A stretch of DNA of 64,000 bases from a virus: the IMG/VR virus record IMGVR_UViG_3300031566_008582. One strand, written 5' to 3'. The notes beneath the pieces are model-generated. The model had not been told where the DNA came from. It ran no database searches and saw only the letters and a list, made by a program, of their open reading frames with translations. Below are positions 5,448 to 63,933 of the stretch, piece after piece (within the stretch, counting starts at the first letter, position 1; every line of letters begins with the position of its first letter). The position numbers and the translations under genes are program-made.

Positions 5448-5458
5448 ATTGTTATTGT

Positions 5459-5782
5459 TTATTCCTCGAGTTTAATACCTAATTCTTCTGCCACCTCATA
5501 AATATCAACATAATTTATTCCTTCTTTTTTAGTTTCATTATAGAAAAATACGTTAAAGGAATCAGATATATTAAATGCTGAATCTATTAATGTTGCAATA
5601 TTATAATAAGGGTTTCCGTCATCACAATGTTCGTTGCACAAAATAATGCAAGATTCACCAAACACATCTCCGCAAGTCGTTAAAATTTTATCTAATAAAA
5701 TGTTGTCCGAACAACCTATTTTTATTAAATCGTCTACTAATGATTTGTGGTTATAAGCATAAAGATCAATTGAAATTGACAT
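5459..5782 (-). CDS. Hypothetical protein
   Basis: 107-aa ORF with GGAAGGA SD. Confidence 0.65.
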   Translation of the reverse strand: MSISIDLYAYNHKSLVDDLIKIGCSDNILLDKILTTCGDVFGESCIILCNEHCDDGNPYYNIATLIDSAFNISDSFNVFFYNETKKEGINYVDIYEVAEELGIKLEE

Positions 5783-49016: not shown

Positions 49017-52000
49017 ATGTCAAAAGCGATAGATGAACTGTCCACACCCTATCAAAACGATTTAATTCGAAATGCTATCATAACTAGTATAAAAGATCAA
49101 TTCCCCGTAGTCGGAAAGCACCATACTTTGAAGCTAGACTTATTACATTTAGATTTATCTAAGGTAGATGAGCTGGACCTTCCAGCACAAAAAGAAGCTA
49201 AATTAGCAGGAAAAGCCTGGACTGCTCCCTTATTGGGATCTTTTAGCTTAATTGATAATAATACTGGACAAATAATTGATAAAACTACCAAAATGAGAAT
49301 AGGAAATATTCCACAATTAACTAATAGATTTAGCACTGTTTTAAAAAAAGGGACTGAATATCAAACTGTTAATCAATTACGATTAAAGTCTGGAGTATAC
49401 ACAAGGCAACAGGCTACTGGTGAATTTGAGTCTAGATTTAATTTAGAAAAGGGATTTAATTTTAGATTATGGATGGATCCAGATAAGGGTATTTTTCTTT
49501 TAAATTTAGGAAATCAGAATTATAAACTATATTTAATATTACACGCACTTGGTGTTTCTGACTCCGTATTAATAAAGGCATGGGGCGAAAAAATATTTAG
49601 CTCAAACGCTAAACAAGGAACACATGGAATGGAGGCGTCTATTATTAATTTATTTGAAAAATTAATGCATGAGAAAACAGATTACTCTACAGCTTTAAAT
49701 GGTTTAAAAACTTATTTGAAGGAAACTAAAGTTTCTTCAGAAACAACTAAAATAACTTTAGGACAATCTTTTAGTACAGTGTCTACCGATACTTTAATAG
49801 CAACGTCCGAAAAATTACTTAAAGTTATGAAAGGGGAAGAGCCGCCAGATGAGCGTGACTCCCTTCTATTTAAAAAATTATTTCCTTTAGACGATTTAAT
49901 AAAAAACTATATGACAATGACTATGCCAAAAATAAAATCTAATTTACAATATAGAGCCGATTCTAAAAATAAAGTTAGAGATATTTTATCTTCAGAAACA
50001 TTTACTGATCCTATTTTACTTTTCTTTAATAAAAGTGAACTAACCTCTTCACCACCTCAAACTAACCCGGTAGAAATGTTAGGAGAGTGGAGAAAAACCA
50101 CGTTAATGGGAGAGGGCGGTATTCGATCTGTTCATGCTATTACAAATGAAGTAAGAGATATTCACGAAAGTCAGATGGGGTTTTTAGACCCAATTAACAC
50201 TCCAGAATCCAGTCGAATAGGTGTTACTTTACCTATTACTATTGGTACTACGAGAAGCAAAGGCGAAATGTACACTGATTTAATAAAATCAGATGGAAAA
50301 AGTATAACTGTTAGTCCTACAAATTTTCATGAAATGTTTGTCGGGTTGCCAGATCAATTTAGTTATAAAAATTTAATTCCTGTTCCACACGGATCCAAAG
50401 TAAAAGCTATACACAAAGGAAAAATTTCTGAAGTGTCAACAAATAAAATAGATGCCTGGATACCTAGTCCAGCACATATGTTTTCTTGGACTACTAACTT
50501 AATTCCTTTTTTAGCTAATAATGAAGGTGCTAGAGCAATGATGGGCACTAAAATGCTGCCCCAGGCTTTACCATTAAAAAATCCAGATTCTCCGTTTATT
50601 CAAACAAAAGTATTTGGTACACAAAGCTTTGAAAAAGCTATCGGAGAATTTGTTAACCCTCGTGCTACACAGACAGGAATAGTTAAATCTGTTACGGAAG
50701 ATTATGTTACAATAGATATCCCCGGACAACCTAAACCCAGAAAAATTGGCTTATTTAATAATTTTCCTTTAAATCAAGGAACATATTTACACTCTACACC
50801 TATAGTGGTTGTTGGCGATAAAGTAAAAACTGGCGACACGTTAGCAGTTAATAATTATCAAAAAGATGGCTTGTTGGCATTAGGTGCTAACGTAAACGTT
50901 GCTTATATGCCTTGGAAGGGATATAATTTTGAAGACTCCGCGGTAGTAACAGAATCTTTGGCTGAAAAATTTACATCTGTTGCTATAGTACGAGAAAGGA
51001 TTTCTACTTCTCCTCAAGGCGTTTTAAGTAAAAAAGTATTTAGAGTTGCTTTTCCCGATATATTATTACACGGTTTAGAGGACAAATTAGACGATTCAGG
51101 AATTATAAAAGTTGGTGAAACTGTAAATCCTAATGATGTTTTAATTGCTTATATGGAACGTAGGGATTTAACTGATGAAGAAAAAATTCTTAAGCAGATG
51201 AACAAAGTAATGTCTAGTCCATATATTAACAGATCTTTAGTATGGAGCCATGAAACGTCTGGAAAAATTTTGTATGTCAATAAAATTGGTAAACAAATCA
51301 TGGTACATATAAAAACCGAAACGCCCATGGTTGTTGGAGATAAGGTGGCTGGAAGACACGGTAATAAGATGATTGTTTCAAAAATTATTCCTGATGATGA
51401 GGCTCCACACACTTTAACTGGAAAACGTATAGACTTAATGATTAATCCTCACGGTGTTCCAGGACGAATGAATATTGGACAATTATTAGAAACTGCCTAT
51501 GGAAAAATATCTGATAAAACTAAGCAGTCTGTCAGAATAGAAAATTTTTCTAATGAAGATCATCTGGATAAATTAAAAAAAGAATTTAAAAAATATAATT
51601 TGCACTTTAACGAAGTTCTACTAGATGGTAAAGATGGTAAGCCTTTTGAAAACCCAATTTTTACCGGTAACCAATATATGATGAAATTAAAACAAGTAGT
51701 GGAACATAAATTAAAAGCAAGAGATTATGGATCATACACTGTGGACCAACAACCAGGTAAAGGAGAAAAGGGCGGACAAAAAATGGATCCCTTAACTACC
51801 TATGTAATGCTGGCTCATGGTGCGAAAGAAAATCTTAGAGAGGCCTCTATAATAAAAGGCCAAAAGAATGACGAGATATGGAGAGCTTTACAACTAGGAC
51901 TCCCTTTACCTCCGCCCAAAGTTAACTTCGCTTTTGATAAACTATTAACTTATTTAAAATCAGCAGGAGTTGATACACGAAAAGACGGTCACACATTAAC

Positions 52001-55000
52001 GCTAACACCCTTCTTAGATTCTGATGTAAAAAATATTTCTTCTGGTAAATTATCGGATCCTGGCCATATGTTGGTAGGTAAGAATTTGACTTCTATAAAA
52101 GGCGGTCTATTTGATGAAGATATCACTGGCGGTAAAAGTGGAAAAAAATGGAGCCATATTAAATTAGAAGAAAAAATGCCGCACCCTATATATGAGTCTG
52201 CTATCATCAGCATTTTAAAATATACAAAACCACAATTTGAAAAAACCCTAGATAGTCCAGACGGTAATAAAGAAATTGAAAAAGCTTTATCTCAAATTAA
52301 TATAGATGATGAAATTAAAAAATCAACTAAAGAGTTATTAGGGGTTCCTGATGTAAAAGTTAATAGTATTAATAAAAGGATTAGATTTTTACAGGCATTG
52401 AAAAAAAATAATTTAAAACCTACAGACTATATGATTCAATATTTTCCAATTATGCCTCCTCTATTTAGACCTGTATATCCTTTACCTGATGGTACTTTAG
52501 TGACGTCTCCAATTAACGCACACTATCGTGATCTTGGTGAGATTAATGATGCCTTGAAAACGTACAAAAATTTGGGACCGGAAGTATATAAAGAATTTTC
52601 TACAAAAACTAAAAAAGATTTGTATCGTACTTTAAAAGAAACTGTTGGTCTTATAGATGTAACTAGGCCTGGAATGGCAAATAAGTATGAAGGGCTCATA
52701 AAAACTTTAGTAGGTACTACTCCTAAAGCAGGGTTTGTTCAAAATAAAGCGTGGGCAAAAAGACAAGACTTTTCTGCCAGATCAACTATTACTTTAGAGC
52801 CATCGTTGGGGTTAGACGAAGTTGGAATTCCTTATGATATGGCTAAAATATTATATAAACCTTTTATTGTACAAGAATTAGTAAAACAAGGCCTTCCAGC
52901 TATAAGGGCATTAGATGAAATAAAAGCAGAAAGTTTGATTGCCCGTACGGCCCTTATTCAGGCAATGAATAAGAGACCCATATTATTAAATAGGGCCCCT
53001 TCATTGCATAAGCACGGGGTGCAGGCTTTTAAACCTATATTAATGGTTGGTAAATCTATTAGAATAAATCCATTAGTAGTGTCCGGGTTTAATGCCGATT
53101 TCGATGGAGACACAATGTCGGTGCATCTTCCAATAACTACCAAAGCAGTAGACGAGGCTAACAATATGGTTCCGTCTAAAAATGTTTTCGGAACAGGTTC
53201 TAAACTAAATATACCAGTTAAATCTTTTAGTCAAGACTATATGCTGGGTTTATGGCATTTAACTCGTGATCAGGCAGATTCTAAAAAGAAATTTAATTCA
53301 ATAGCGGAAGCCAAAGGCGCTGGTTTAAAAATAGCTGAAACATTTGAACTTGCAGGAATAGGAAAAACCACTCTAGGAAGAATTGCGGTCAATGAGATGC
53401 TGCCACAAAAATATAGAAATTATAGTAGAATAATGACACATAAAGCGTTAACAATACTAATGACTCTTATAGCACAAGAATCACCTACTGATTACGCCAC
53501 CATAATTGATTCATTAAAAGATCTGGGGAATCAGTATGGGCATAGATACGGAGCAACTGTTTCTTTAACTGATGTTGATGTTGATAAAACGTTTAAAGAA
53601 AAAGCTATAAAATTTGGCAAGAAAAAAGAAAAATCTTCGTGGAACAAAAACGAAAGAGCCGATTATTGGCAAAAAATGACAGAACAAATAAATCAAAAAA
53701 CTTTTGATAGTTTAGCAAATAAAAATAATTCACTTATGCATATGTTAGATTCCGGCTCAATAGGAAAAAAAGGAAACATTGCCCAAATATTGTCTATGGG
53801 CGGAGTCAAAACAGACATTAGAAATGAACCGTTGGAGCGACCGTTCGTAAAATCCTGGACTGAAGGCCAAGACATGGCTGATTATTGGGAGGGCTTGTAT
53901 AGTTCAAGAAAAGGTATTGTTGATAGAACTATCAACACCGCGGACTCAGGGGCATTAAACAAAGCTTTACTTGGAGCTATAAGAGACGTATTAATTACAG
54001 ACGATGATTGTGAAACAACAGAAGGAATAAAGCTCAGTATTGACGATCCGGACATAGTAGACCGTTTTCTTTTACACGCTATTCCAGGAGTTGGGGCTAA
54101 AAATGAATTAGCAACTCAAGCATCAATCGCTAAAGCAAAACTAAAAAATATAAAAGAAATAGAAGTTAGGTCACCCTTAACTTGTCGAGAAGATTATGGA
54201 ATTTGTCAACTTTGTTATGGATTGATGAGTAATGGTAAAATTCCTCCTCTGGGAACTAATGTAGGAATTTTAGATGGTCAGGCAGTTACAGAAAGATCTA
54301 CACAACTGACAATGCAAACCTTCCACACTGGTGGAGCTAGGGGTACTGGAATTATGGAAAAATTCCCCAGACTTGAACAGCTCTTAAAAGTTCCCAAAAT
54401 TGTCAAAGGCAAAGCTATTTTAGCAAGTAAGTCTGGAATAGTAGAAAGCATAGATAAAAGCCCAATTGGTGGTTGGGATGTAGTTATAAACGGAACGCAC
54501 CACAGAGTACCATTAAATTTAAATTTAGTTGTTAAAAAAGGACAAAAAATTACAGTTGGAGATCAAATTTCAGAAGGTGTTATAAAACCTCAAGAACTAG
54601 CTACTTTAAAAGATTTTCGTTCAGCTCAATTACAAATGGTAAAAGATTTTGACAATGTATATAACGGAGATTTTCATAAACGTACTTTCGAAACCGTAGT
54701 ACGCGGTATTTCTAATAACGCAGAAATCACATTGGCACCGGCTTCTACTGGATTTTTAAGAGGTGATTTAGATAAAATTTCTAGAATTAATTCTATTAAT
54801 GAAGATAGGGTAAAAAATAAATTACCGTTAATCGAGTATCGGCCATATTTTAGATCTATAAGTATGCTTCCAAGCGATCAACAAGACTGGCTTTCAAGAC
54901 TAACTACTGAAAGATTAAAACAGACAATTACTGAAGGCGCGGCTTCCGGCATGGCGACCAATATTAAAGGCAGAGACCCGCTACCAGCATATATTTATGG

Positions 55001-55049
55001 ATTGGAGTTTGCTAAAGATTTTGATCCTAAAAGAGGACAGTTCTATTAA
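49017..55049 (+). CDS. rpoBC: DNA-directed RNA polymerase, fused beta-beta' subunits
   Basis: Beta: EVRDIH..GFLDPINTPE, GDKVAGRHGNK, NPHGVPGRMNIGQ; beta': LLNRAPSLH, NADFDGD, TQLTMQTFHTGG; no internal stop. Confidence 0.95.
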   Translation: MSKAIDELSTPYQNDLIRNAIITSIKDQFPVVGKHHTLKLDLLHLDLSKVDELDLPAQKEAKLAGKAWTAPLLGSFSLIDNNTGQIIDKTTKMRIGNIPQLTNRFSTVLKKGTEYQTVNQLRLKSGVYTRQQATGEFESRFNLEKGFNFRLWMDPDKGIFLLNLGNQNYKLYLILHALGVSDSVLIKAWGEKIFSSNAKQGTHGMEASIINLFEKLMHEKTDYSTALNGLKTYLKETKVSSETTKITLGQSFSTVSTDTLIATSEKLLKVMKGEEPPDERDSLLFKKLFPLDDLIKNYMTMTMPKIKSNLQYRADSKNKVRDILSSETFTDPILLFFNKSELTSSPPQTNPVEMLGEWRKTTLMGEGGIRSVHAITNEVRDIHESQMGFLDPINTPESSRIGVTLPITIGTTRSKGEMYTDLIKSDGKSITVSPTNFHEMFVGLPDQFSYKNLIPVPHGSKVKAIHKGKISEVSTNKIDAWIPSPAHMFSWTTNLIPFLANNEGARAMMGTKMLPQALPLKNPDSPFIQTKVFGTQSFEKAIGEFVNPRATQTGIVKSVTEDYVTIDIPGQPKPRKIGLFNNFPLNQGTYLHSTPIVVVGDKVKTGDTLAVNNYQKDGLLALGANVNVAYMPWKGYNFEDSAVVTESLAEKFTSVAIVRERISTSPQGVLSKKVFRVAFPDILLHGLEDKLDDSGIIKVGETVNPNDVLIAYMERRDLTDEEKILKQMNKVMSSPYINRSLVWSHETSGKILYVNKIGKQIMVHIKTETPMVVGDKVAGRHGNKMIVSKIIPDDEAPHTLTGKRIDLMINPHGVPGRMNIGQLLETAYGKISDKTKQSVRIENFSNEDHLDKLKKEFKKYNLHFNEVLLDGKDGKPFENPIFTGNQYMMKLKQVVEHKLKARDYGSYTVDQQPGKGEKGGQKMDPLTTYVMLAHGAKENLREASIIKGQKNDEIWRALQLGLPLPPPKVNFAFDKLLTYLKSAGVDTRKDGHTLTLTPFLDSDVKNISSGKLSDPGHMLVGKNLTSIKGGLFDEDITGGKSGKKWSHIKLEEKMPHPIYESAIISILKYTKPQFEKTLDSPDGNKEIEKALSQINIDDEIKKSTKELLGVPDVKVNSINKRIRFLQALKKNNLKPTDYMIQYFPIMPPLFRPVYPLPDGTLVTSPINAHYRDLGEINDALKTYKNLGPEVYKEFSTKTKKDLYRTLKETVGLIDVTRPGMANKYEGLIKTLVGTTPKAGFVQNKAWAKRQDFSARSTITLEPSLGLDEVGIPYDMAKILYKPFIVQELVKQGLPAIRALDEIKAESLIARTALIQAMNKRPILLNRAPSLHKHGVQAFKPILMVGKSIRINPLVVSGFNADFDGDTMSVHLPITTKAVDEANNMVPSKNVFGTGSKLNIPVKSFSQDYMLGLWHLTRDQADSKKKFNSIAEAKGAGLKIAETFELAGIGKTTLGRIAVNEMLPQKYRNYSRIMTHKALTILMTLIAQESPTDYATIIDSLKDLGNQYGHRYGATVSLTDVDVDKTFKEKAIKFGKKKEKSSWNKNERADYWQKMTEQINQKTFDSLANKNNSLMHMLDSGSIGKKGNIAQILSMGGVKTDIRNEPLERPFVKSWTEGQDMADYWEGLYSSRKGIVDRTINTADSGALNKALLGAIRDVLITDDDCETTEGIKLSIDDPDIVDRFLLHAIPGVGAKNELATQASIAKAKLKNIKEIEVRSPLTCREDYGICQLCYGLMSNGKIPPLGTNVGILDGQAVTERSTQLTMQTFHTGGARGTGIMEKFPRLEQLLKVPKIVKGKAILASKSGIVESIDKSPIGGWDVVINGTHHRVPLNLNLVVKKGQKITVGDQISEGVIKPQELATLKDFRSAQLQMVKDFDNVYNGDFHKRTFETVVRGISNNAEITLAPASTGFLRGDLDKISRINSINEDRVKNKLPLIEYRPYFRSISMLPSDQQDWLSRLTTERLKQTITEGAASGMATNIKGRDPLPAYIYGLEFAKDFDPKRGQFY

Positions 55050-55940: not shown

Positions 55941-57047
55941 TTAAACTAGTTCACCAGAATCTTTGTCACTTGTTAAAACTTTATTTACTGGAAGATAGGA
56001 CTGTAAAGTACAAATTAGGTCTTCTCTATTTTTACAATATTTTGTCTTCCCTGAAACAGTTATTGGGTAATTTTTAGAAATTTGATCTAGACATGTTACT
56101 ACTAGGTATTTATTATCACAGTCTTTCGAAAAGACATAATCAATTTCTAGCGCATAAAATAACAAGTCTATATCCAAAACTCTTGTCCTAAAATTACCTT
56201 GGAACGTATTAGTTACATTAGTTTCTTTTTCATTGTTTACTAATGGTGGGGCAGTATTTTCGTTAGTCATAGGACCTTTACCATGCCTTGTTTGATAACA
56301 GCGCGTAACATAATAAATACTTGTTATTCCTCCGCCAGCCATAGCTAAAGCGTCCTTACTAGTAGTATTGCTTCTAGTAACATATGGAAAAAATCCGTGA
56401 TCTTTATCAAGAAGTAGTCCTTGGGCTCCCTCATAAATAACATTATATTTATTTATGGGTAATTCACAAATTGGACCAATACTTGGTAATTTTAATAATA
56501 GCTTAATATTATTAACAAATGAAACAATAGCCTGTTTGTTAGTAACTTTGTAGTAATCGGCTATGTTTTCTAGTTTTATTTTTAAAACTTGTTCATGATA
56601 AAGATCTATAAAATGTAACTTATAGTGGTCTTCTTGCCGTTGAAGAGTTGATCCAAAACCCACACCTACTGATCCATGTATAGCCGTCTTCATATTATGG
56701 TCTATGTCGAAAGGCGTAGTAACAGGAGAAAGAACATTGATATATAATTGTGGAGTAAGTCCTTTCTGACATAATATATTATATTCATACAACAAAGCAG
56801 TTGGGTACACAGTACATTGTGGTCCCCAATAGGTTGGAATGTTGTGTAAAGTCCCTGAGCCAAAGGATGAAAATACATGACGTATATTATTTTTGACTAC
56901 AGTATGACCGACCTGATGACCCCCATTAAACCTTACAACCATAGTATTTTTTGGATCTAGTTGAGAAGCAAGAAAAGACACTACACGTCCTTTGCCTTCG
57001 TCTCCAAAACCTGCACCAATAACAATTTTACTGGTTTTCATAAACAC
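55941..57047 (-). CDS. purA: Adenylosuccinate synthetase-like protein
   Basis: GAGFGDEGKG, RFNGGHQVGHT, EGAQGLLLD, FPYVTRSNT; shorter than canonical PurA. Confidence 0.8.
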   Translation of the reverse strand: MFMKTSKIVIGAGFGDEGKGRVVSFLASQLDPKNTMVVRFNGGHQVGHTVVKNNIRHVFSSFGSGTLHNIPTYWGPQCTVYPTALLYEYNILCQKGLTPQLYINVLSPVTTPFDIDHNMKTAIHGSVGVGFGSTLQRQEDHYKLHFIDLYHEQVLKIKLENIADYYKVTNKQAIVSFVNNIKLLLKLPSIGPICELPINKYNVIYEGAQGLLLDKDHGFFPYVTRSNTTSKDALAMAGGGITSIYYVTRCYQTRHGKGPMTNENTAPPLVNNEKETNVTNTFQGNFRTRVLDIDLLFYALEIDYVFSKDCDNKYLVVTCLDQISKNYPITVSGKTKYCKNREDLICTLQSYLPVNKVLTSDKDSGELV

Positions 57048-58441: not shown

Positions 58442-59647
58442 TTATTTGTTGCCACCTGTTGGCAATTTTAAACTTAAACTTAAATCTTGGGCAGTTTTTG
58501 CGGATAGCATATCAATTAGTTGTTGAGCACCGCCTCCAGCAATATTACCACTACCATCTTTTCCTGCCATAACAATTTGAGGCACCCAATTTCCTTGATA
58601 TTTAGAAATAGCGTCGGCGTATATCTTATTAACTTCAACCCAGGCTTCCAATTTTTTATCCAGGGCTCCGTCAGCACTCATAACTAATTGTTTTCTTTGA
58701 GCTTCACCTTGACCTAGTAATATTTCTTTTTGCTTAGTAAACTCAGCAGCTTCTTTTTCAAGTTTAGAAACATCTCTTCTCATTTCAGCTTCGGTAACTT
58801 TTTGAGCTTTAATTGTTTCTTGTTCCCATTTAGCTTGCATAGCTGTAGCTTTACCTTTTTGTTCTACGGTATAGGCTTCCTGTTCAGATTCTTTGGCTCT
58901 AGCTATTGCTGTTTGAACCGCCATAATGGCTTTTTGTTGTTCTTCAATTTGAAGTTCAACGCGGTCATCATAAGAAACATCATTAATAGTTAAGTTTGAA
59001 GTACCTATACTAAAATTATGAATAGGGGAAATTTCCTGACGGGATTTTCCTCCAGGTGAGTTTGGGTCTGAAATAATTTCGACAACTTGCAGCGTACGAG
59101 TTTCGTTCGTCATAGGGTCTGTAGTCTTCCTATCTTGACTAGTAGTACGATATACGCCATTTTCTAATTGATCTTCAATTAAATTCAGTAAATAGCTTCT
59201 TTTTTCAGAATAGGACTCTTTAGCGGACATCAACGGCCCTGTCATATAAACGCATTTTTCAATACTTGTGCGTATCAATTCTTGTTCTAAAGCGGCCTGG
59301 CTACCGAAAGCTTTGTGGATTTTAATTATTTCTTCATCTGCTAAAGGCATATTTAATAAAAACATTCCAGAAATCGTAGCATGCGACCCATCTTGAAATC
59401 TTATTTTAATTGATTGGTCTAAAGCGGACCCTTGGTCATCGGCATTGGAAAACCAGTAAGGAAATACTCTTTTATATTTTGTTACTGTGCCTAAATTTTG
59501 ATATTTAAGACCGGGAGTAGTGTAGACATGAAGTTCTCCGTCGACAGGGTCTTGTATAACCATACTTTCATCGGCAGCGAGATTTTCAAATAAACTACCC
59601 CAGGCAGCAATTACTAAAACAATTGCCAGTATCGCCAGGATACCCAT
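58442..59647 (-). CDS. SPFH/band-7 membrane protein
   Basis: N-terminal TM, IKIRFQDGSHATISG, LTINDVSYD, C-terminal AxA coiled coil. Confidence 0.8.
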   Translation of the reverse strand: MGILAILAIVLVIAAWGSLFENLAADESMVIQDPVDGELHVYTTPGLKYQNLGTVTKYKRVFPYWFSNADDQGSALDQSIKIRFQDGSHATISGMFLLNMPLADEEIIKIHKAFGSQAALEQELIRTSIEKCVYMTGPLMSAKESYSEKRSYLLNLIEDQLENGVYRTTSQDRKTTDPMTNETRTLQVVEIISDPNSPGGKSRQEISPIHNFSIGTSNLTINDVSYDDRVELQIEEQQKAIMAVQTAIARAKESEQEAYTVEQKGKATAMQAKWEQETIKAQKVTEAEMRRDVSKLEKEAAEFTKQKEILLGQGEAQRKQLVMSADGALDKKLEAWVEVNKIYADAISKYQGNWVPQIVMAGKDGSGNIAGGGAQQLIDMLSAKTAQDLSLSLKLPTGGNK

Positions 59648-59649
59648 AT

Positions 59650-59988
59650 TGGTGGAGATGGCCGGACTCGAACCGGCGTCCGCATAGATTAATACTAAAC
59701 ATTCTACGTGTGTACCTGATATCTAAATTTTCGCCTCATTTACCGCTATCAGTAGCTATTCTATAAGGGCTAGTCCTTTATTTTCGTGAATAGGGTGGGA
59801 CAGTTCTATTCCTTATTCTATTTTCCCCAATACTTTTATTTATCAAACAGAAAAATTTCTATAAAAGTTGCGGCTAGGCCGCTAATGCGTAACTGTTGTC
59901 AGTTAAATTAGTGTTGCCGTTTTACGAGTTTACAACAACTCGACACGCTTGTTAAGTTTTTGTCTTTACGTCGAATCCTTTCATCCCC
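59650..59988 (-). ncRNA. ssrA: tmRNA
   Basis: 5' GGGGATGAAAGGATTCGAC, 3' GGTTCGAGTCCGGCCATCTCCACCA; tag (A)DNSYALAA*. Confidence 0.93.
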
Positions 59989-59989
59989 A

Positions 59990-60064
59990 TGGTTGCGGGG
60001 GCCAGAATCAAACTGGCGTAGTCTGGCTTATGAGGCCAAACGGGTAATCAACAACCTCCCCGCC
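59990..60064 (-). tRNA. tRNA-Met(CAT), fMet-like acceptor with non-canonical features
   Basis: GGCGGGG/CCCCGCA-A-CCA, anticodon loop CT-CAT-AA, T-loop TTTGATT. Confidence 0.7.
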
Positions 60065-60065
60065 T

Positions 60066-60536
60066 TTTTTCCCCAGGCCTGCCTTTTGGCGACGTCCGGA
60101 CAGTCGGCAGATCGCTACTTTTGCCTGGGGAAACATTGTAAATTTTCAATTATTGAGAACTTTGTAAATAAAGAATCAACGATACGGGACCTGAACCCGT
60201 ATACGATCTTGAGGGCTGCAATTTACTGATCACCCTGTCTACCATTCTTACTGATAGCCGTCCTACCTAAGAGCGTGCAGCTACAAATAGGGCGCACGGA
60301 TGCAGGCGCGTCTCCAAAACATTCCGCCACGTTGTCTTTATTTACATAAAATGATCAATATTGTGCTATTACGCCAAAGGTTAAAACATCAGATGTTTCA
60401 TAATCTCTTGACTACCCTCTGCAACTCTTTTGCCTTTATTGTTTTAAAGTCACGGCTCATGGTCACGGAGGGAGAGATAACCACTCTTTAAAGGAAATGG
60501 ACAATAACCTCCATTGGCTGCTTTTAAGCCTACCTC
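60066..60536 (-). ncRNA. Large structured ncRNA candidate (rRNA H43/H44-like plus tRNA-like domains)
   Basis: GAGGTAGGCTTAAAAGCAGCCA..TCCTTTAAAGAGTG..GCGTAATAGC; D-arm- and T-arm-like segments; 11-bp terminal hairpin; boundaries approximate. Confidence 0.55.
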
Positions 60537-60764
60537 TTATTGATCATATGTTTTCAAATAATATTCTATAAGTTCTTTTGTAGGCTTTATTCCTACATAA
60601 ATTGGAATTATGGTTAAGCCCCAAATGCCGTGTGATATTAAAGATATTAATATCAATAGCGGCACACCAACAGCTAACCATCGTATTGTGTCGTCCATTA
60701 GACCACGATCATAAAATATTCTAACTATTGTTAAGACTGACACTAGTAAATCAAACAATACCAT
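60537..60764 (-). CDS. Small membrane protein
   Basis: Two to three hydrophobic segments. Confidence 0.55.
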   Translation of the reverse strand: MVLFDLLVSVLTIVRIFYDRGLMDDTIRWLAVGVPLLILISLISHGIWGLTIIPIYVGIKPTKELIEYYLKTYDQ

Positions 60765-61000
60765 TTGTTATTACCCTTTCTTTTACCACATTTATTTATA
60801 TTTTTTATTTGTAAATTCGGTGGGGCCTCTGCATTTTTCATCAGAGTGACAAGCAAGGCTGCCCTGAAACTAAACACAAACAAAAACTTTTACAGCAAAG
60901 TTTGGTGCTTATTGAGAAATGACATTAAATTGTCAAATACTGTAACCCTTAATCAGTTCCTACACGTTGCGTGAGCTTTAGCCCACCCCCAATTTTTTAA

Positions 61001-61073
61001 CGACGAAGGTAGGAATCGAACCTACGTATCGTTGGTTAACAGCCAACTGCTCAGTCCTCTTAGCTACTCCGTC
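61001..61073 (-). tRNA. tRNA-Asn(GTT), no encoded CCA
   Basis: Cloverleaf; GTTGG-CTGTTAA-CCAAC; GGTTCGATTCC. Confidence 0.9.
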
Positions 61074-61117
61074 AACTTAACCGTAATCTTGCGTAATACC
61101 CATTCATACATCCTTTA

Positions 61118-61246: not shown

Positions 61247-61795
61247 TTATAGTAAAACAACTCCAGCATCCACCATGTTATAATAAAAACTATCTGGCGT
61301 TGTTCCAATATCTCGAGTATGAGACATCAATATGTATGTTACGAAACCTGCTTTAGCGGCCTGCATGGCAGTATATTTTACACAAAATTTAAGAGCTACA
61401 CCACACACAAAAACCGCCCCAACTCCCAGATCTTTTAATTGAACATCAAGACCCGTATGATTAGTTCCATCATTATCCGAAAATGGTCCATAAGGATGTG
61501 ATTCTCTGTCAGTTCCTTTTTTAATACGAATTGTCTCCCCTCTTGAACAAGGATATAGCTCCGGATAAAGTTCTGCTCCAAATGTGCTCTGCACACAATG
61601 CTCTGGCCAATCTTTTATGAAAGAAGTATGGTCTTTTGGGTGCCAGTCCACAGTATACACTATTACGTCATATACAGGCAGGTCTCTATTTATCAATGGA
61701 ATTATTTCTTTAGCATTAGGCACTGATAAAGCCCCGTCTGTTCTTACAAAATCATTTTGCATATCTACTACAAAGAGAGCATTTTTTTTCAACAT
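61247..61795 (-). CDS. pncA: Nicotinamidase/pyrazinamidase
   Basis: VVDMQNDF..GALSV, DWHP..HTSF..WPEHC, GVALKFCV. Confidence 0.9.
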   Translation of the reverse strand: MLKKNALFVVDMQNDFVRTDGALSVPNAKEIIPLINRDLPVYDVIVYTVDWHPKDHTSFIKDWPEHCVQSTFGAELYPELYPCSRGETIRIKKGTDRESHPYGPFSDNDGTNHTGLDVQLKDLGVGAVFVCGVALKFCVKYTAMQAAKAGFVTYILMSHTRDIGTTPDSFYYNMVDAGVVLL

Positions 61796-62940
61796 CTTAA
61801 TATTTCCTTACAAAGATTTATTTCATTTTTGTTGCCCGTATGTTTATTTATATCGTCAGATAATTTAACAGTGGGTAACCATTGTTTATTTCTTCCAAAC
61901 ACTGCGTCTAATTTAATAACTATGTTTAAAGGTGTTGCTCCGACATCATTGGTCAGATTTGTTCCAATTCCAAAAGCACACTTTATTCCTTTTTCATCAC
62001 ATTGTGCTTTTAGTCGTAAGGCTAAATCAATATTTAAACTATCAGAAAAAACAATAGTTTTAGTAGACGGGTCAATCCTGTGTTGTTTGTAATGTTTTAT
62101 AATCTTATCAATGTAAGCAAAAGGATCACCGCTGTCCTGGCGTACCCCATCAAATAATTTAGAGTATAGAGTATCAAAACTCTGCAAGAAGACATCGCTG
62201 GTATATGTGTCAGTAAGGGCAATGCCTAATTTTCCTTTGAAGATGTTAGCCCAATTTTTTAAAGCCATATAATTTGCTGAATTGTAACCATACTTAACAG
62301 CGTGGTACATAACCCATTCGTGAGCATGCGTGCCGATTGGTTTTATATCTTGGTGATAAGCTAATCGTACATTACTTGTACCAACTAAAGAACCTTTTAA
62401 GGCTTTAATTACAGTTTCGTGATTATCATAAGAATATCTTCGACGAGTGCCAAAATCAGAGACTGTTAATTTATGGCACTTTATTCTTTGGGCTTTGTCT
62501 AAATTTATTTTTTGGGTAACGTCTCTGGAATATATCGGGGTTTTTATTGTTTGAAAATAAAATTCAGATATAGTAGCTAATAAAGGTACTTCCCACAACA
62601 CAGCTCTATACCAGGGCCCTTCTACAATAATTTCTATATTACCACAAGGAAATTGCTGTATTTTAACCTCATTCGGATCGAATACATAACCACGTAAGAA
62701 ATCAAGATAAACAGGACTTAAAAACGGGCATGTCTCTATCAACCAATAACAGGCTCTTTCAGATAATGTGTATTGCACCCAGGAACTAATTTCTGCTTTT
62801 AAAGATTTAGCAAAATTATCTGGAAAATTAGTTCTGCCTCTATTGTGAAATTTATATCTAACAATAGATCTTGGAAAATGCTGACAAATGGCCTGTTGCA
62901 TGGTAAATTTGTATAAATCGTTATCTAGTATCCCACGCAT
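61789..62940 (-). CDS. pncB: Nicotinate phosphoribosyltransferase
   Basis: LDNDLYKFTMQQA, DFGTRRR, GTHAHEW, DGVRQDSGDP, FGIGTNL, KLSDD. Confidence 0.93.
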   Translation of the reverse strand: MRGILDNDLYKFTMQQAICQHFPRSIVRYKFHNRGRTNFPDNFAKSLKAEISSWVQYTLSERACYWLIETCPFLSPVYLDFLRGYVFDPNEVKIQQFPCGNIEIIVEGPWYRAVLWEVPLLATISEFYFQTIKTPIYSRDVTQKINLDKAQRIKCHKLTVSDFGTRRRYSYDNHETVIKALKGSLVGTSNVRLAYHQDIKPIGTHAHEWVMYHAVKYGYNSANYMALKNWANIFKGKLGIALTDTYTSDVFLQSFDTLYSKLFDGVRQDSGDPFAYIDKIIKHYKQHRIDPSTKTIVFSDSLNIDLALRLKAQCDEKGIKCAFGIGTNLTNDVGATPLNIVIKLDAVFGRNKQWLPTVKLSDDINKHTGNKNEINLCKEILRC

Positions 62941-63285: not shown

Positions 63286-63363
63286 TGGCGGGCCTACTAG
63301 GGTTCGAACCTAGACATCTTCAGTTTTGGAGACTGATATGTTAACCAGTTACACCACAGACCC
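63286..63363 (-). tRNA. tRNA-Trp(CCA)
   Basis: TCAGT-CTCCAAA-ACTGA, GGTTCGAACCC, encoded CCA end. Confidence 0.9.
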
Positions 63364-63933
63364 TAATTTAAATTTATTTTTTTGTTTAGTTAATAATCTT
63401 TTCATTACAATTTTACCTCTATGCATTCTGGTTCTTACTGTAACATTGGATGTGTTCATTTGATCAGCTATATCTTCTGGCTTAAGTCCTACAAAAATTT
63501 GTAATAAAAGTGGTTCTTTGTAAATATCCGGCACTTCCGCTAAGGCGGCCACTACTTCGTCGGATAAATAATGTTTTAATAGAGACTCAAGCTTTACATA
63601 ATTTGTTTCAGCCCCTAATAAATTTGCACCATAGTCGTCATATGAATTATCCGAGGAGATTATTTCTTCCGTATAATCAAACAACGGAAGATCACAATGT
63701 GCACGCAATCTACTGCTACTGAAGAATGTGTAAATAGTGTTGGTCATAATTGTACGTAACCAGGAATATGGTTTAGTTTGCGGTGTATACTGATCCTTGT
63801 GTATAAAAGCTTTGTACAATGTTTCCTGTACAAAATCTTCAGCTGTTTGCGCGTTTTTTAAAATACAGTAAGCTGTTTTGCACAATCTTTTTCTAAAAGG
63901 CATAAAAGTGTCAACAAACTCTTTCGAGTCCAT
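63349..63933 (-). CDS. ECF-type sigma-70 factor
   Basis: AEDFVQETLYKA, YSWLRTIMTN, EDIADQMNTSNVTVRTRMHRG. Confidence 0.88.
   Translation of the reverse strand: MDSKEFVDTFMPFRKRLCKTAYCILKNAQTAEDFVQETLYKAFIHKDQYTPQTKPYSWLRTIMTNTIYTFFSSSRLRAHCDLPLFDYTEEIISSDNSYDDYGANLLGAETNYVKLESLLKHYLSDEVVAALAEVPDIYKEPLLLQIFVGLKPEDIADQMNTSNVTVRTRMHRGKIVMKRLLTKQKNKFKLGSVV

Follow-up and report, generated by a model that had tools for sequence, protein, structure and literature searches.

The GTPase-associated centre (GAC) of bacterial 23S rRNA (helices H42-H44, E. coli positions 1051-1108) is a 58-nt domain to which uL11 and thiostrepton bind. It has been isolated, with a short closing stem, as 'ribosome-in-pieces' oligonucleotides (Wool, Draper and Ramakrishnan laboratories), and such synthetic fragments bind L11 and thiostrepton in vitro. 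Extra-ribosomal RNAs that imitate a protein-binding site of rRNA are also found in the leaders of ribosomal protein (r-protein) operons (L10, L1, L20 and S15), which act in cis in the mRNA of the bound protein and imitate few nucleotides. In 6S RNA and the phage pseudo-ToxI antitoxin mimic, an abundant RNA imitates the nucleic-acid ligand of a host protein and sequesters that protein. Structured RNAs without annotation also lie among phage tRNA genes, as exemplified by GOLLD and ROOL, which form RNA-only cages. The use of RNA mimicry by phages against host systems has been described (PMC3475682).

We analysed a stretch of 64,000 nt of viral DNA (IMG/VR record IMGVR_UViG_3300031566_008582; the whole stretch is called the window here), which encodes a near-exact imitation of the entire GAC domain outside any rRNA gene. 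It differs from each of the systems above. Unlike the r-protein leaders, the mimic is found alone or in tRNA arrays, in genomes without the gene for that r-protein; unlike GOLLD and ROOL, it has an rRNA-like core; unlike the 'ribosome-in-pieces' oligonucleotides, which are laboratory constructs, it is a natural gene with added expansion segments. Compared with 6S RNA and pseudo-ToxI, what is imitated is a domain of ribosomal RNA, and the decoy role is putative.

The closed RNA domain of ~195 nt is on the minus strand, from 60546 to 60352 (60352..60546), and is delimited by a terminal stem that encloses three rRNA blocks (23S positions 1056-1077, 1078-1090 and 1091-1103) colinear with the rRNA order. 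Across positions 1056-1103, 45 out of 48 letters are identical to a true 23S rRNA used as the reference (contig L010, with an Rfam LSU score of 1772 bits; a second true 23S is the Leptospira contig L023), the differences being at 1061, 1068 and 1101 (an A in the mimic and a U in rRNA at 1101). The first block, 60515..60536, is the 22-mer GAGGUAGGCUUAAAAGCAGCCA (60536-60515 as read on the minus strand), which copies 23S 1056-1077 with 20 of 22 letters identical and covers G1056, the lower 5' strand of H43, U1060, A1061, the GGCU/AGCC stem, the A1067 loop (reading UUAAAAGCA, with G1068A) and A1077; it occurs once in the window at up to three mismatches (0.00 occurrences expected from 100 shuffles). 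After A1077 the copy is interrupted by insert 1 (60496..60514), a 19-nt block comprising a hairpin with an AUGGA/UCCAU stem and one U able to pair with A1061. The sequence UCCUUUAAAGAGUG (minus-strand 60495-60482) follows, and within it 60483..60495 copies 23S 1078-1090 (13/13 identical), covering the lower 3' strand of H43, the junction UUUAAAG, and then A1088, G1089 and U1090.

The second interruption, between U1090 and G1091, consists of insert 2 (60379..60482), a 104-nt multi-hairpin domain closed by GGUUA/UAACC, and a single-stranded, conserved UUUG linker (60375..60378) that is absent from rRNA. There are thus 107 nt (60481-60375) between UCCUUUAAAGAGUG and GCGUAAUAGC (minus-strand 60374-60365), with which the third block begins. 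This block (60361..60374) copies 23S 1091-1104, with 12 out of 13 letters identical over 1091-1103, and covers the pairs G1091-C1100 and C1092-G1099, the A1095 loop GUAAUA, A1101, C1102 and A1103. The 9-bp closing stem, in the place of rRNA helix 42, is formed by UGAUCAAUA (60538..60546) and UAUUGAUCA (60352..60360), paired as 60546-60538 with 60360-60352; its sequence is not that of rRNA. As read from these letters, the element is a free-standing replica of the GAC (H42-H44), in which a short arbitrary helix that ends the molecule replaces H42 and onto which two expansion segments have been grafted. The initial annotation had described a split mimic of 23S H43/H44 on this strand, and its blocks are read exactly as reported; an RNA of ~470 nt, as it proposed, was not supported, the mimic being a closed domain of ~195 nt.

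Comparison with Rfam confirmed that there is no other rRNA nearby: at the gathering score no rRNA was found in the window, and only a tmRNA and three tRNAs were detected. The region of the element (59900-61100) gave no LSU, SSU, GOLLD, ROOL or leader match on the element even at E<=10, and for ~20 family members (see below) there was likewise no match on any element, the only hits being tRNA, tmRNA, 5S and true LSU elsewhere. We therefore rejected a true rRNA gene or fragment, for which there is no LSU match and whose place is flanked by an ORF and a non-rRNA stem, and also GOLLD, ROOL or another Rfam 15 family, none of which scores at the gathering threshold; the suggested relation to GOLLD or ROOL is excluded. 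A search for other rRNA-like pieces inside the inserts returned noise only, and insert 2 has no consistent match to other regions of rRNA. No RNA of this kind turned up in our literature searches, and by comparison with Rfam 15 and the literature that could be searched, the element apparently represents an undescribed class of phage RNA.

Host rRNA fragments are sometimes present in phage records (e.g. Paenibacillus phage Pd_22F, a match that we rejected as a family member, carries a true 23S fragment), so that the element could in principle be a non-functional remnant of host rDNA that was captured, or a chimera of assembly. This is hardly credible here: the flanking sequence is not rRNA, covariation is seen in the closing stem and the insert helices (contradicting such an origin), and the core is conserved across phages that are otherwise dissimilar. 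The identical element sequence is also found in ~18 contigs (JGI, ENA and Logan), which, together with its conservation across the family, argues against an assembly artefact. Identical copies in soil DNA runs from six studies do not add independent support, because these runs are flagged as possible sources of the same DNA.

The element belongs to a large family. We scanned metagenome contigs with a pattern consisting of the H43 loop followed by the junction after 6-36 nt, and obtained ten loci: one of them is a true 23S carrying a short insertion, and the other nine are non-rRNA (seven distinct sequences) and share the split architecture of the window element. The same pattern retrieved seven viral contigs from IMG/VR, and from GTDB (one genome per species) nothing but a true 23S of Leptospira and a single coding match due to chance, a result that applies to the two-insert form, as the pattern cannot separate members lacking insert 1 from rRNA. 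Altogether there are 12 distinct two-insert members (metagenome and IMG/VR, window included), arranged in the order closing stem, 1056-1077, hairpin, 1078-1090, an insert of 65-246 nt, UUUG, GCGUAAYAGCAC and closing stem. The window has all the features of the family (an arbitrary closing stem, 1056-1090, a helix-closed insert, UUUG and the GCGUAAYAGCAC block) as well as that of the two-insert subtype, with 19 nt at 60514-60496 where the eleven other distinct members have 19-31 nt. In searches with nhmmer block profiles, which included the window itself, its 5' block had an E-value of 7.8e-6 and its 3' block 1.1e-4, and these searches gave one mimic copy per locus.

The family-specific 3' block (unlike rRNA at 1101 and in the linker) was found in more than 119 IMG/VR contigs among the matches listed, and many of these contigs are 100-500 kb long. 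From all loci, 68 further distinct members were parsed; they were gathered by a pattern demanding TTTGG and are thus not independent for the UUUG linker. The window is absent from this set because its copy fails the parser at position 1104, where it departs from the family by having an A opposite an A (1055:1104). Extra nucleotides at the insert-1 site are present in 18 of the 68, so the two-insert arrangement is a minority form.

Copies were also found in cultured phages when other members served as BLAST queries, the family having come to light only in this way and through pattern scans; blastn of the 1.2-kb window region against INPHARED gave no match, and the window phage has no close cultured relative. 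Copies were confirmed by sequence in Pseudomonas phages pf16 and Milchi (two tandem copies), Xanthomonas phages XacN1 and XbC2, Erwinia phage Kaldavass, Cronobacter phage GAP32 and Aeromonas phage 4_4572, and BLAST matches of the same kind were seen in Pseudomonas phages UNO-G1W1 and Astolliot and Pectobacterium phage CBB. These cultured carriers (~10 phages) all infect Gammaproteobacteria, and their copies have the second insert and the linker and lack the first hairpin. An RNA gene is annotated for the mimic in none of the records examined: those of UNO-G1W1 and Milchi have a CDS for a 'hypothetical protein' across the match, and in the others there is no feature at that place. Between phages with no further similarity at the nucleotide level, the core of the family is conserved. 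One distant relative (L001), found through the SPFH-like protein, does not carry the element.

Covariation was counted by custom scripts in the 12 two-insert members and in the 68 further members. The sequence of the closing stem differs in almost every member while its pairing is kept: in the 12 members (window included), 83% of the positions are paired versus 51% when the partners are shuffled (none of 5000 shuffles was as good), and in the 68 further members (without the window), 88% are paired versus 55%, and as many as six pair types occur at a position. Covariation of the type expected from the rRNA fold is also present within the core. Among the 68 members, pair 1058:1080 is U-A in 30, G-C in 23, A-U in 13 and C-G in one, between the constant pairs 1059:1079 and 1057:1081. 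Pair 1082:1086, which closes the junction loop and is known only from L11-RNA crystal structures, is U-A in 40, C-G in 17 and A-U in nine, with two U-U exceptions. In the upstream Milchi copy, C1072U occurs together with U1092-A1099; this matches the known CCG/UUA base-triple covariation, an alternative reportedly described by Conn, Gutell and Draper.

U1060 (unchanged in all 68 further members), A1088, A1067, A1095 and A1098 are invariant in the family, and G1056 is kept opposite A1103 as in rRNA, while positions 1096 and 1097 vary as A/G and U/C/A; the G1068A of the window is shared with seven of the 68. All the features of the GAC fold are found in the window copy: the H43 and H44 loops with A1067 and A1095, the junction 1082-1087 (UUUAAAG), U1060 and A1088, pairs 1091-1100 and 1092-1099, and the closing helix. 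Because the tertiary pair covaries and U1060, A1067, A1088 and A1095 are invariant, the RNA very likely folds like the real GAC. Very likely, then, judging from these substitution patterns, the RNA has been selected for the three-dimensional fold of the GAC domain, beyond mere likeness of sequence. The initial annotation had asked for covariation across phages, and it is seen in the closing stem, in 1058:1080, in 1082:1086 and in the helix that closes insert 2 (see below). The idea of a free-standing, structured phage RNA imitating H43/H44 holds across a large family with such covariation; the structural interpretation given in that annotation is right and much more general than first described.

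Insert 1 is a hairpin of different sequence, with different stems, at the same place in the 12 distinct two-insert members. RNAalifold pairs position 1061 with the nucleotide following the hairpin in this subtype (AU, UA, UG and CG are observed), and position 1078, mostly A, could pair with U1060; with the hairpin and these two pairings the internal loop of H43 becomes a three-way junction. Pairing of A1078 with U1060 may alter the U1060-A1088 tertiary pair in the two-insert subtype. The true 23S rRNAs of L010 and L023 carry short insertions at the same site, indicating that it tolerates expansion in real ribosomes.

Insert 2, in contrast to rRNA, is present in every member (65-309 nt) together with the UUUG linker. 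It branches off the 5' strand of H44 between U1090 and G1091, opposite an uninterrupted 3' strand; A1101 can pair with U1090, and pf16 has a G at 1101, giving a U-G wobble. Its first three pairs are formed in 100, 99 and 94% of members with three to six standard pair types. Eleven of the 12 two-insert members, and the six parsed copies from cultured phages, have UUUG as the linker; the exceptions are UCUG (L013) and UUUA (L020). Possible loop-loop pairing between inserts 1 and 2 was limited to a 7-nt complement in the window (p ~0.09) that is not conserved in other members.

Such a universal insert, at a fixed site and followed by a conserved linker, could suggest that insert 2 is the active part and that the rRNA-like core is merely a robust scaffold for folding, possibly with uL11 bound to it as a chaperone. 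Sub-families do share insert motifs, as the window, L007 and L013 have AAGGCAA...UUGC in common and the XacN1 group has GACCCUUAGAG. But the interior varies by lineage, and over its range of lengths no motif is shared by every member; the core, in contrast, hardly varies, so that selection appears to act mainly on the core. We consider the scaffold explanation improbable.

Among the genes of the window phage are those for an RNA-polymerase beta-like protein (2010 aa), a CCA-adding enzyme, a portal-like protein, a sigma factor and NAD salvage; the phage has an RNA polymerase of its own. The tmRNA (59650-59988) and the three tRNAs found with Rfam in the window are on the same strand as the mimic, which is within a 1.5-kb, mostly non-coding stretch of same-strand RNA genes. 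It is preceded there by tRNA-Asp, tRNA-Asn and a 75-aa ORF, and followed by an unusual tRNA-like domain, a long hairpin, a weakly tRNA-like element and, last, the tmRNA. A tRNA gene is located within 1 kb of the mimic in 30 of the 68 further members (~45%), in all 30 cases on the same strand and in 23 within 100 nt. In L018 and L021, for example, the mimic is inside arrays of 27 and 23 tRNAs, respectively. This related pair also has in common an HNH-endonuclease-like ORF that reads into the element. The XacN1 copy has a candidate sigma-70-type promoter (TTGACT-17-TAATAT) and an intrinsic terminator, both read by eye, and is adjoined by an ORF annotated as a 2'-5' RNA ligase. A promoter/terminator scan of the window region gave nothing above the shuffled background.

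The 75-aa ORF upstream of the mimic (60537..60764, minus strand) encodes a hydrophobic protein with no Pfam match, and the first two bases of its stop codon (60539-60537) are in the 5' strand of the closing stem. L013 and L007 each have an ORF that begins ~20 nt downstream of the mimic and is provided with a ribosome-binding site. These overlaps and distances would fit a cis-regulatory element acting on an adjacent gene through uL11, either as an operator of the r-protein-leader type or as a 3' UTR structure. We regard this as very improbable, since many copies are between tRNAs, the XacN1 copy has what appear to be its own promoter and terminator, and no protein neighbour is conserved among the loci compared (no relative of the 75-aa ORF was found beside other members, and this ORF is probably not part of the RNA's function). 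An r-protein leader (of the L10 or L11 operon type) was rejected as a candidate on similar grounds: no leader model matches, there are no r-protein genes nearby and no L11 gene, and the neighbours vary. No L11 was found in five IMG/VR records (Pfam PF00298), nor by tblastn in the window or related loci, so any L11 bound by the RNA would be that of the host.

The contigs of two aquatic metatranscriptomes that are identical to the window cover the tmRNA only (59675-60007); such contigs indicate presence and are not evidence that the neighbouring element is silent. No RNA runs matching the element were listed.

Reportedly (Draper, Wimberly, Conn), the isolated rRNA 58-mer binds L11 and thiostrepton. 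As the isolated rRNA domain binds L11, thiostrepton and EF-G, a decoy of uL11 is the most economical reading of the element. For EF-G, the binding of isolated oligonucleotides of the thiostrepton domain is reported in a passage of PMC3496166 that cites Munishkin and Wool (1997). We find it quite plausible that with this element a large phage encodes a stable non-coding RNA that acts as a decoy in trans, with host uL11 foremost among its targets. The RNA would be made in the infected cell, often freed from tRNA-array transcripts by tRNA processing, and would present the binding surface of the ribosomal stalk base. Its most certain ligand would be host uL11, the C-terminal domain of which recognises exactly this fold. 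By capturing free or exchangeable uL11, it could leave ribosomes poor in L11, and in such ribosomes the L11-dependent responses, such as RelA activation, might be blunted. Since RelA activation requires L11, sequestration of L11 could in this way dampen the stringent response. The same surface may also absorb other molecules that recognise the site. Somewhat more tentatively, we propose in general terms that a phage replica of the stalk base captures host uL11 or other readers of the site (a GAC-directed toxin, a GTPase, or RelA with tRNA) and thereby reprograms or protects translation.

Three observations bear on whether uL11 would be the ligand. Insert 1 is in the internal loop of H43, where the C-terminal domain of L11 contacts the minor groove, and we count this against uL11, as we do the possible pairing of A1078 with U1060 in the two-insert subtype. 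In addition, A1067 and A1095 are not known to be required for L11 binding; that these two never vary in the family hints at a reader of the loops (a factor, a toxin or a tRNA elbow) and not at L11 alone.

Among the loop readers, translational GTPases or RelA-type sensors (EF-G, IF2, RF3, BipA and RelA), with or without uL11 and the stalk, might be titrated or misled by the RNA as a sponge or platform that offers the factor-binding surface. The invariant loops and the binding of EF-G by thiostrepton-domain oligonucleotides mentioned above are consistent with this, as is a contact in the RelA complex, where A1067 stacks on the A/R tRNA elbow (PMC5829649). Against it, no copy of the sarcin-ricin loop was found in the window (up to two mismatches) or in the 12 two-insert members (up to four mismatches). 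The affinities of the isolated domain for factors are micromolar, and with EF-G and EF-Tu being very abundant, titration of these factors is implausible. We consider a factor sponge rather improbable.

The RNA could instead be a decoy for an enzyme or toxin that attacks the GAC (an abortive-infection effector of the host or an effector of a competitor), sparing the ribosomes that the phage needs. To our knowledge, no anti-phage system targets the GAC. GAC-directed toxins do exist: Tre23 ADP-ribosylates H44 around 1095-1098 and blocks the GTPase activity of EF-G (PMC8661411). The exposed loops with A1067 and A1095 are invariant, and the nearby tRNA arrays, tmRNA and RNA-repair-type genes (the CCA-adding enzyme, and the 2'-5' RNA ligase in XacN1) fit the idea that these phages bring spare parts and decoys for translation machinery that is being attacked. 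But no conserved protein partner or immunity-like gene adjoins the RNA, and a decoy that acts stoichiometrically on a catalytic enzyme would demand a very high copy number. We regard a toxin decoy as unlikely, and return to capture of host uL11 as the preferred function.

It is possible that pipelines for non-coding RNAs that mask rRNA-like sequence have hidden genes of this kind. The family would also provide a natural series of GAC variants, whose tolerated insertion sites and covarying tertiary pairs are useful for work on RNA folding and thiopeptides. The proposed function is directly testable, because the family is present in cultured, tractable phages (e.g. pf16, XacN1 and GAP32). Should the RNA be produced and bind uL11 or another ligand of the site, this would be an unrecognised action of phages on the host ribosome, in which the phage copies a functional rRNA domain rather than encoding a protein inhibitor. 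It would then be the first viral decoy of an rRNA domain, a natural 'ribosome-in-pieces'.

We observed copies of the mimic (the RNA domain that copies the GTPase-associated centre of 23S rRNA) in cultured phages. For example, Pseudomonas phage Milchi (L032) carries two mimics in tandem, at about 1162-1480 and 1495-1665; the upstream one is a divergent copy with the loop UUAAAGGUA and a shortened junction, and in this copy C1072U is found together with U1092-A1099 (23S rRNA numbering), an alternative base triple. In another example, the mimic of Xanthomonas phage XacN1 (L027, 1460-1790) adjoins an ORF annotated as a 2'-5' RNA ligase and, judged by eye, appears to have a sigma-70-type promoter of its own (TTGACT-17-TAATAT) as well as a strong intrinsic terminator. 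Expansion of H43 is also seen in true 23S rRNAs: those of a metagenome organism (L010, 44-79) and Leptospira vanthielii (L023, 1896-1928) have 6-10 additional nucleotides after A1077, the same site at which the mimic carries insert 1, its extra hairpin.

The mimic can overlap protein-coding sequence. An ORF of 139 a.a. is shared by two other carriers (L018, 10713-11132, plus strand; L021, 11344-11763, minus strand; 70% identity between the two loci), with an HNH-endonuclease-like motif, LCxxCH, recognized by eye; it overlaps the mimic by ∼30 nt and its stop lies inside insert 1. A similar overlap is found in the window, where an upstream ORF of 75 a.a. ends with a stop codon that overlaps the closing stem of the mimic.

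Several RNA-like elements, all on the minus strand, lie between the mimic and the tmRNA of the window. Immediately 3' of the mimic is a tRNA-like domain of ∼160 nt (60176-60335), which combines a D-arm-like segment resembling the tRNA-Asp of this phage with a T-arm-like hairpin (ACGGGUUCAGGUCCCGU); its length rules it out as a tRNA. It is followed by a long G+C-rich hairpin (60070-60130; CCCCAGGC...GCCUGGGG) and then by a weak tRNA-like element (59996-60061; Rfam tRNA, 19 bits, E 0.61), for which ARAGORN makes no tRNA call and the Rfam alignment has the anticodon- and T-arms, with the acceptor/D region truncated. In carrier L014, a tRNA-like gene of 100 nt (5456-5555, minus strand; ARAGORN, four-base anticodon ttcc) is immediately upstream of the mimic.

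The weak element ends 8 nt short of the phage-encoded tmRNA (59650-59988, minus strand; Rfam, 144 bits), for which ARAGORN gives the tag DNSYALAA. Two aquatic metatranscriptome runs contain contigs that match this tmRNA at 100% identity, one of which extends beyond the 5' end of the tmRNA by 19 nt.

Among the protein genes of the window are NAPRTase and an isochorismatase-family (nicotinamidase-like) enzyme (61247-62940, minus strand), whose role is NAD salvage, adenylosuccinate synthetase (55941-57047, minus), a sigma-70-family factor (63349-63933, minus), a 2010-aa RNA-polymerase beta-like protein (49017-55049, plus) and a CCA-adding enzyme (205-1671, minus). This auxiliary set is typical for very large phages. 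Just past the tmRNA, an SPFH/Band-7-like protein of 401 a.a. (58442-59647, minus strand) has ∼780 homologues, with 47-58% identity among the 120 matches listed. Many homologues are on contigs labelled Parcubacteria, Patescibacteria or Nanoarchaeota, which are probably mis-binned phage contigs or else a hint of the host.
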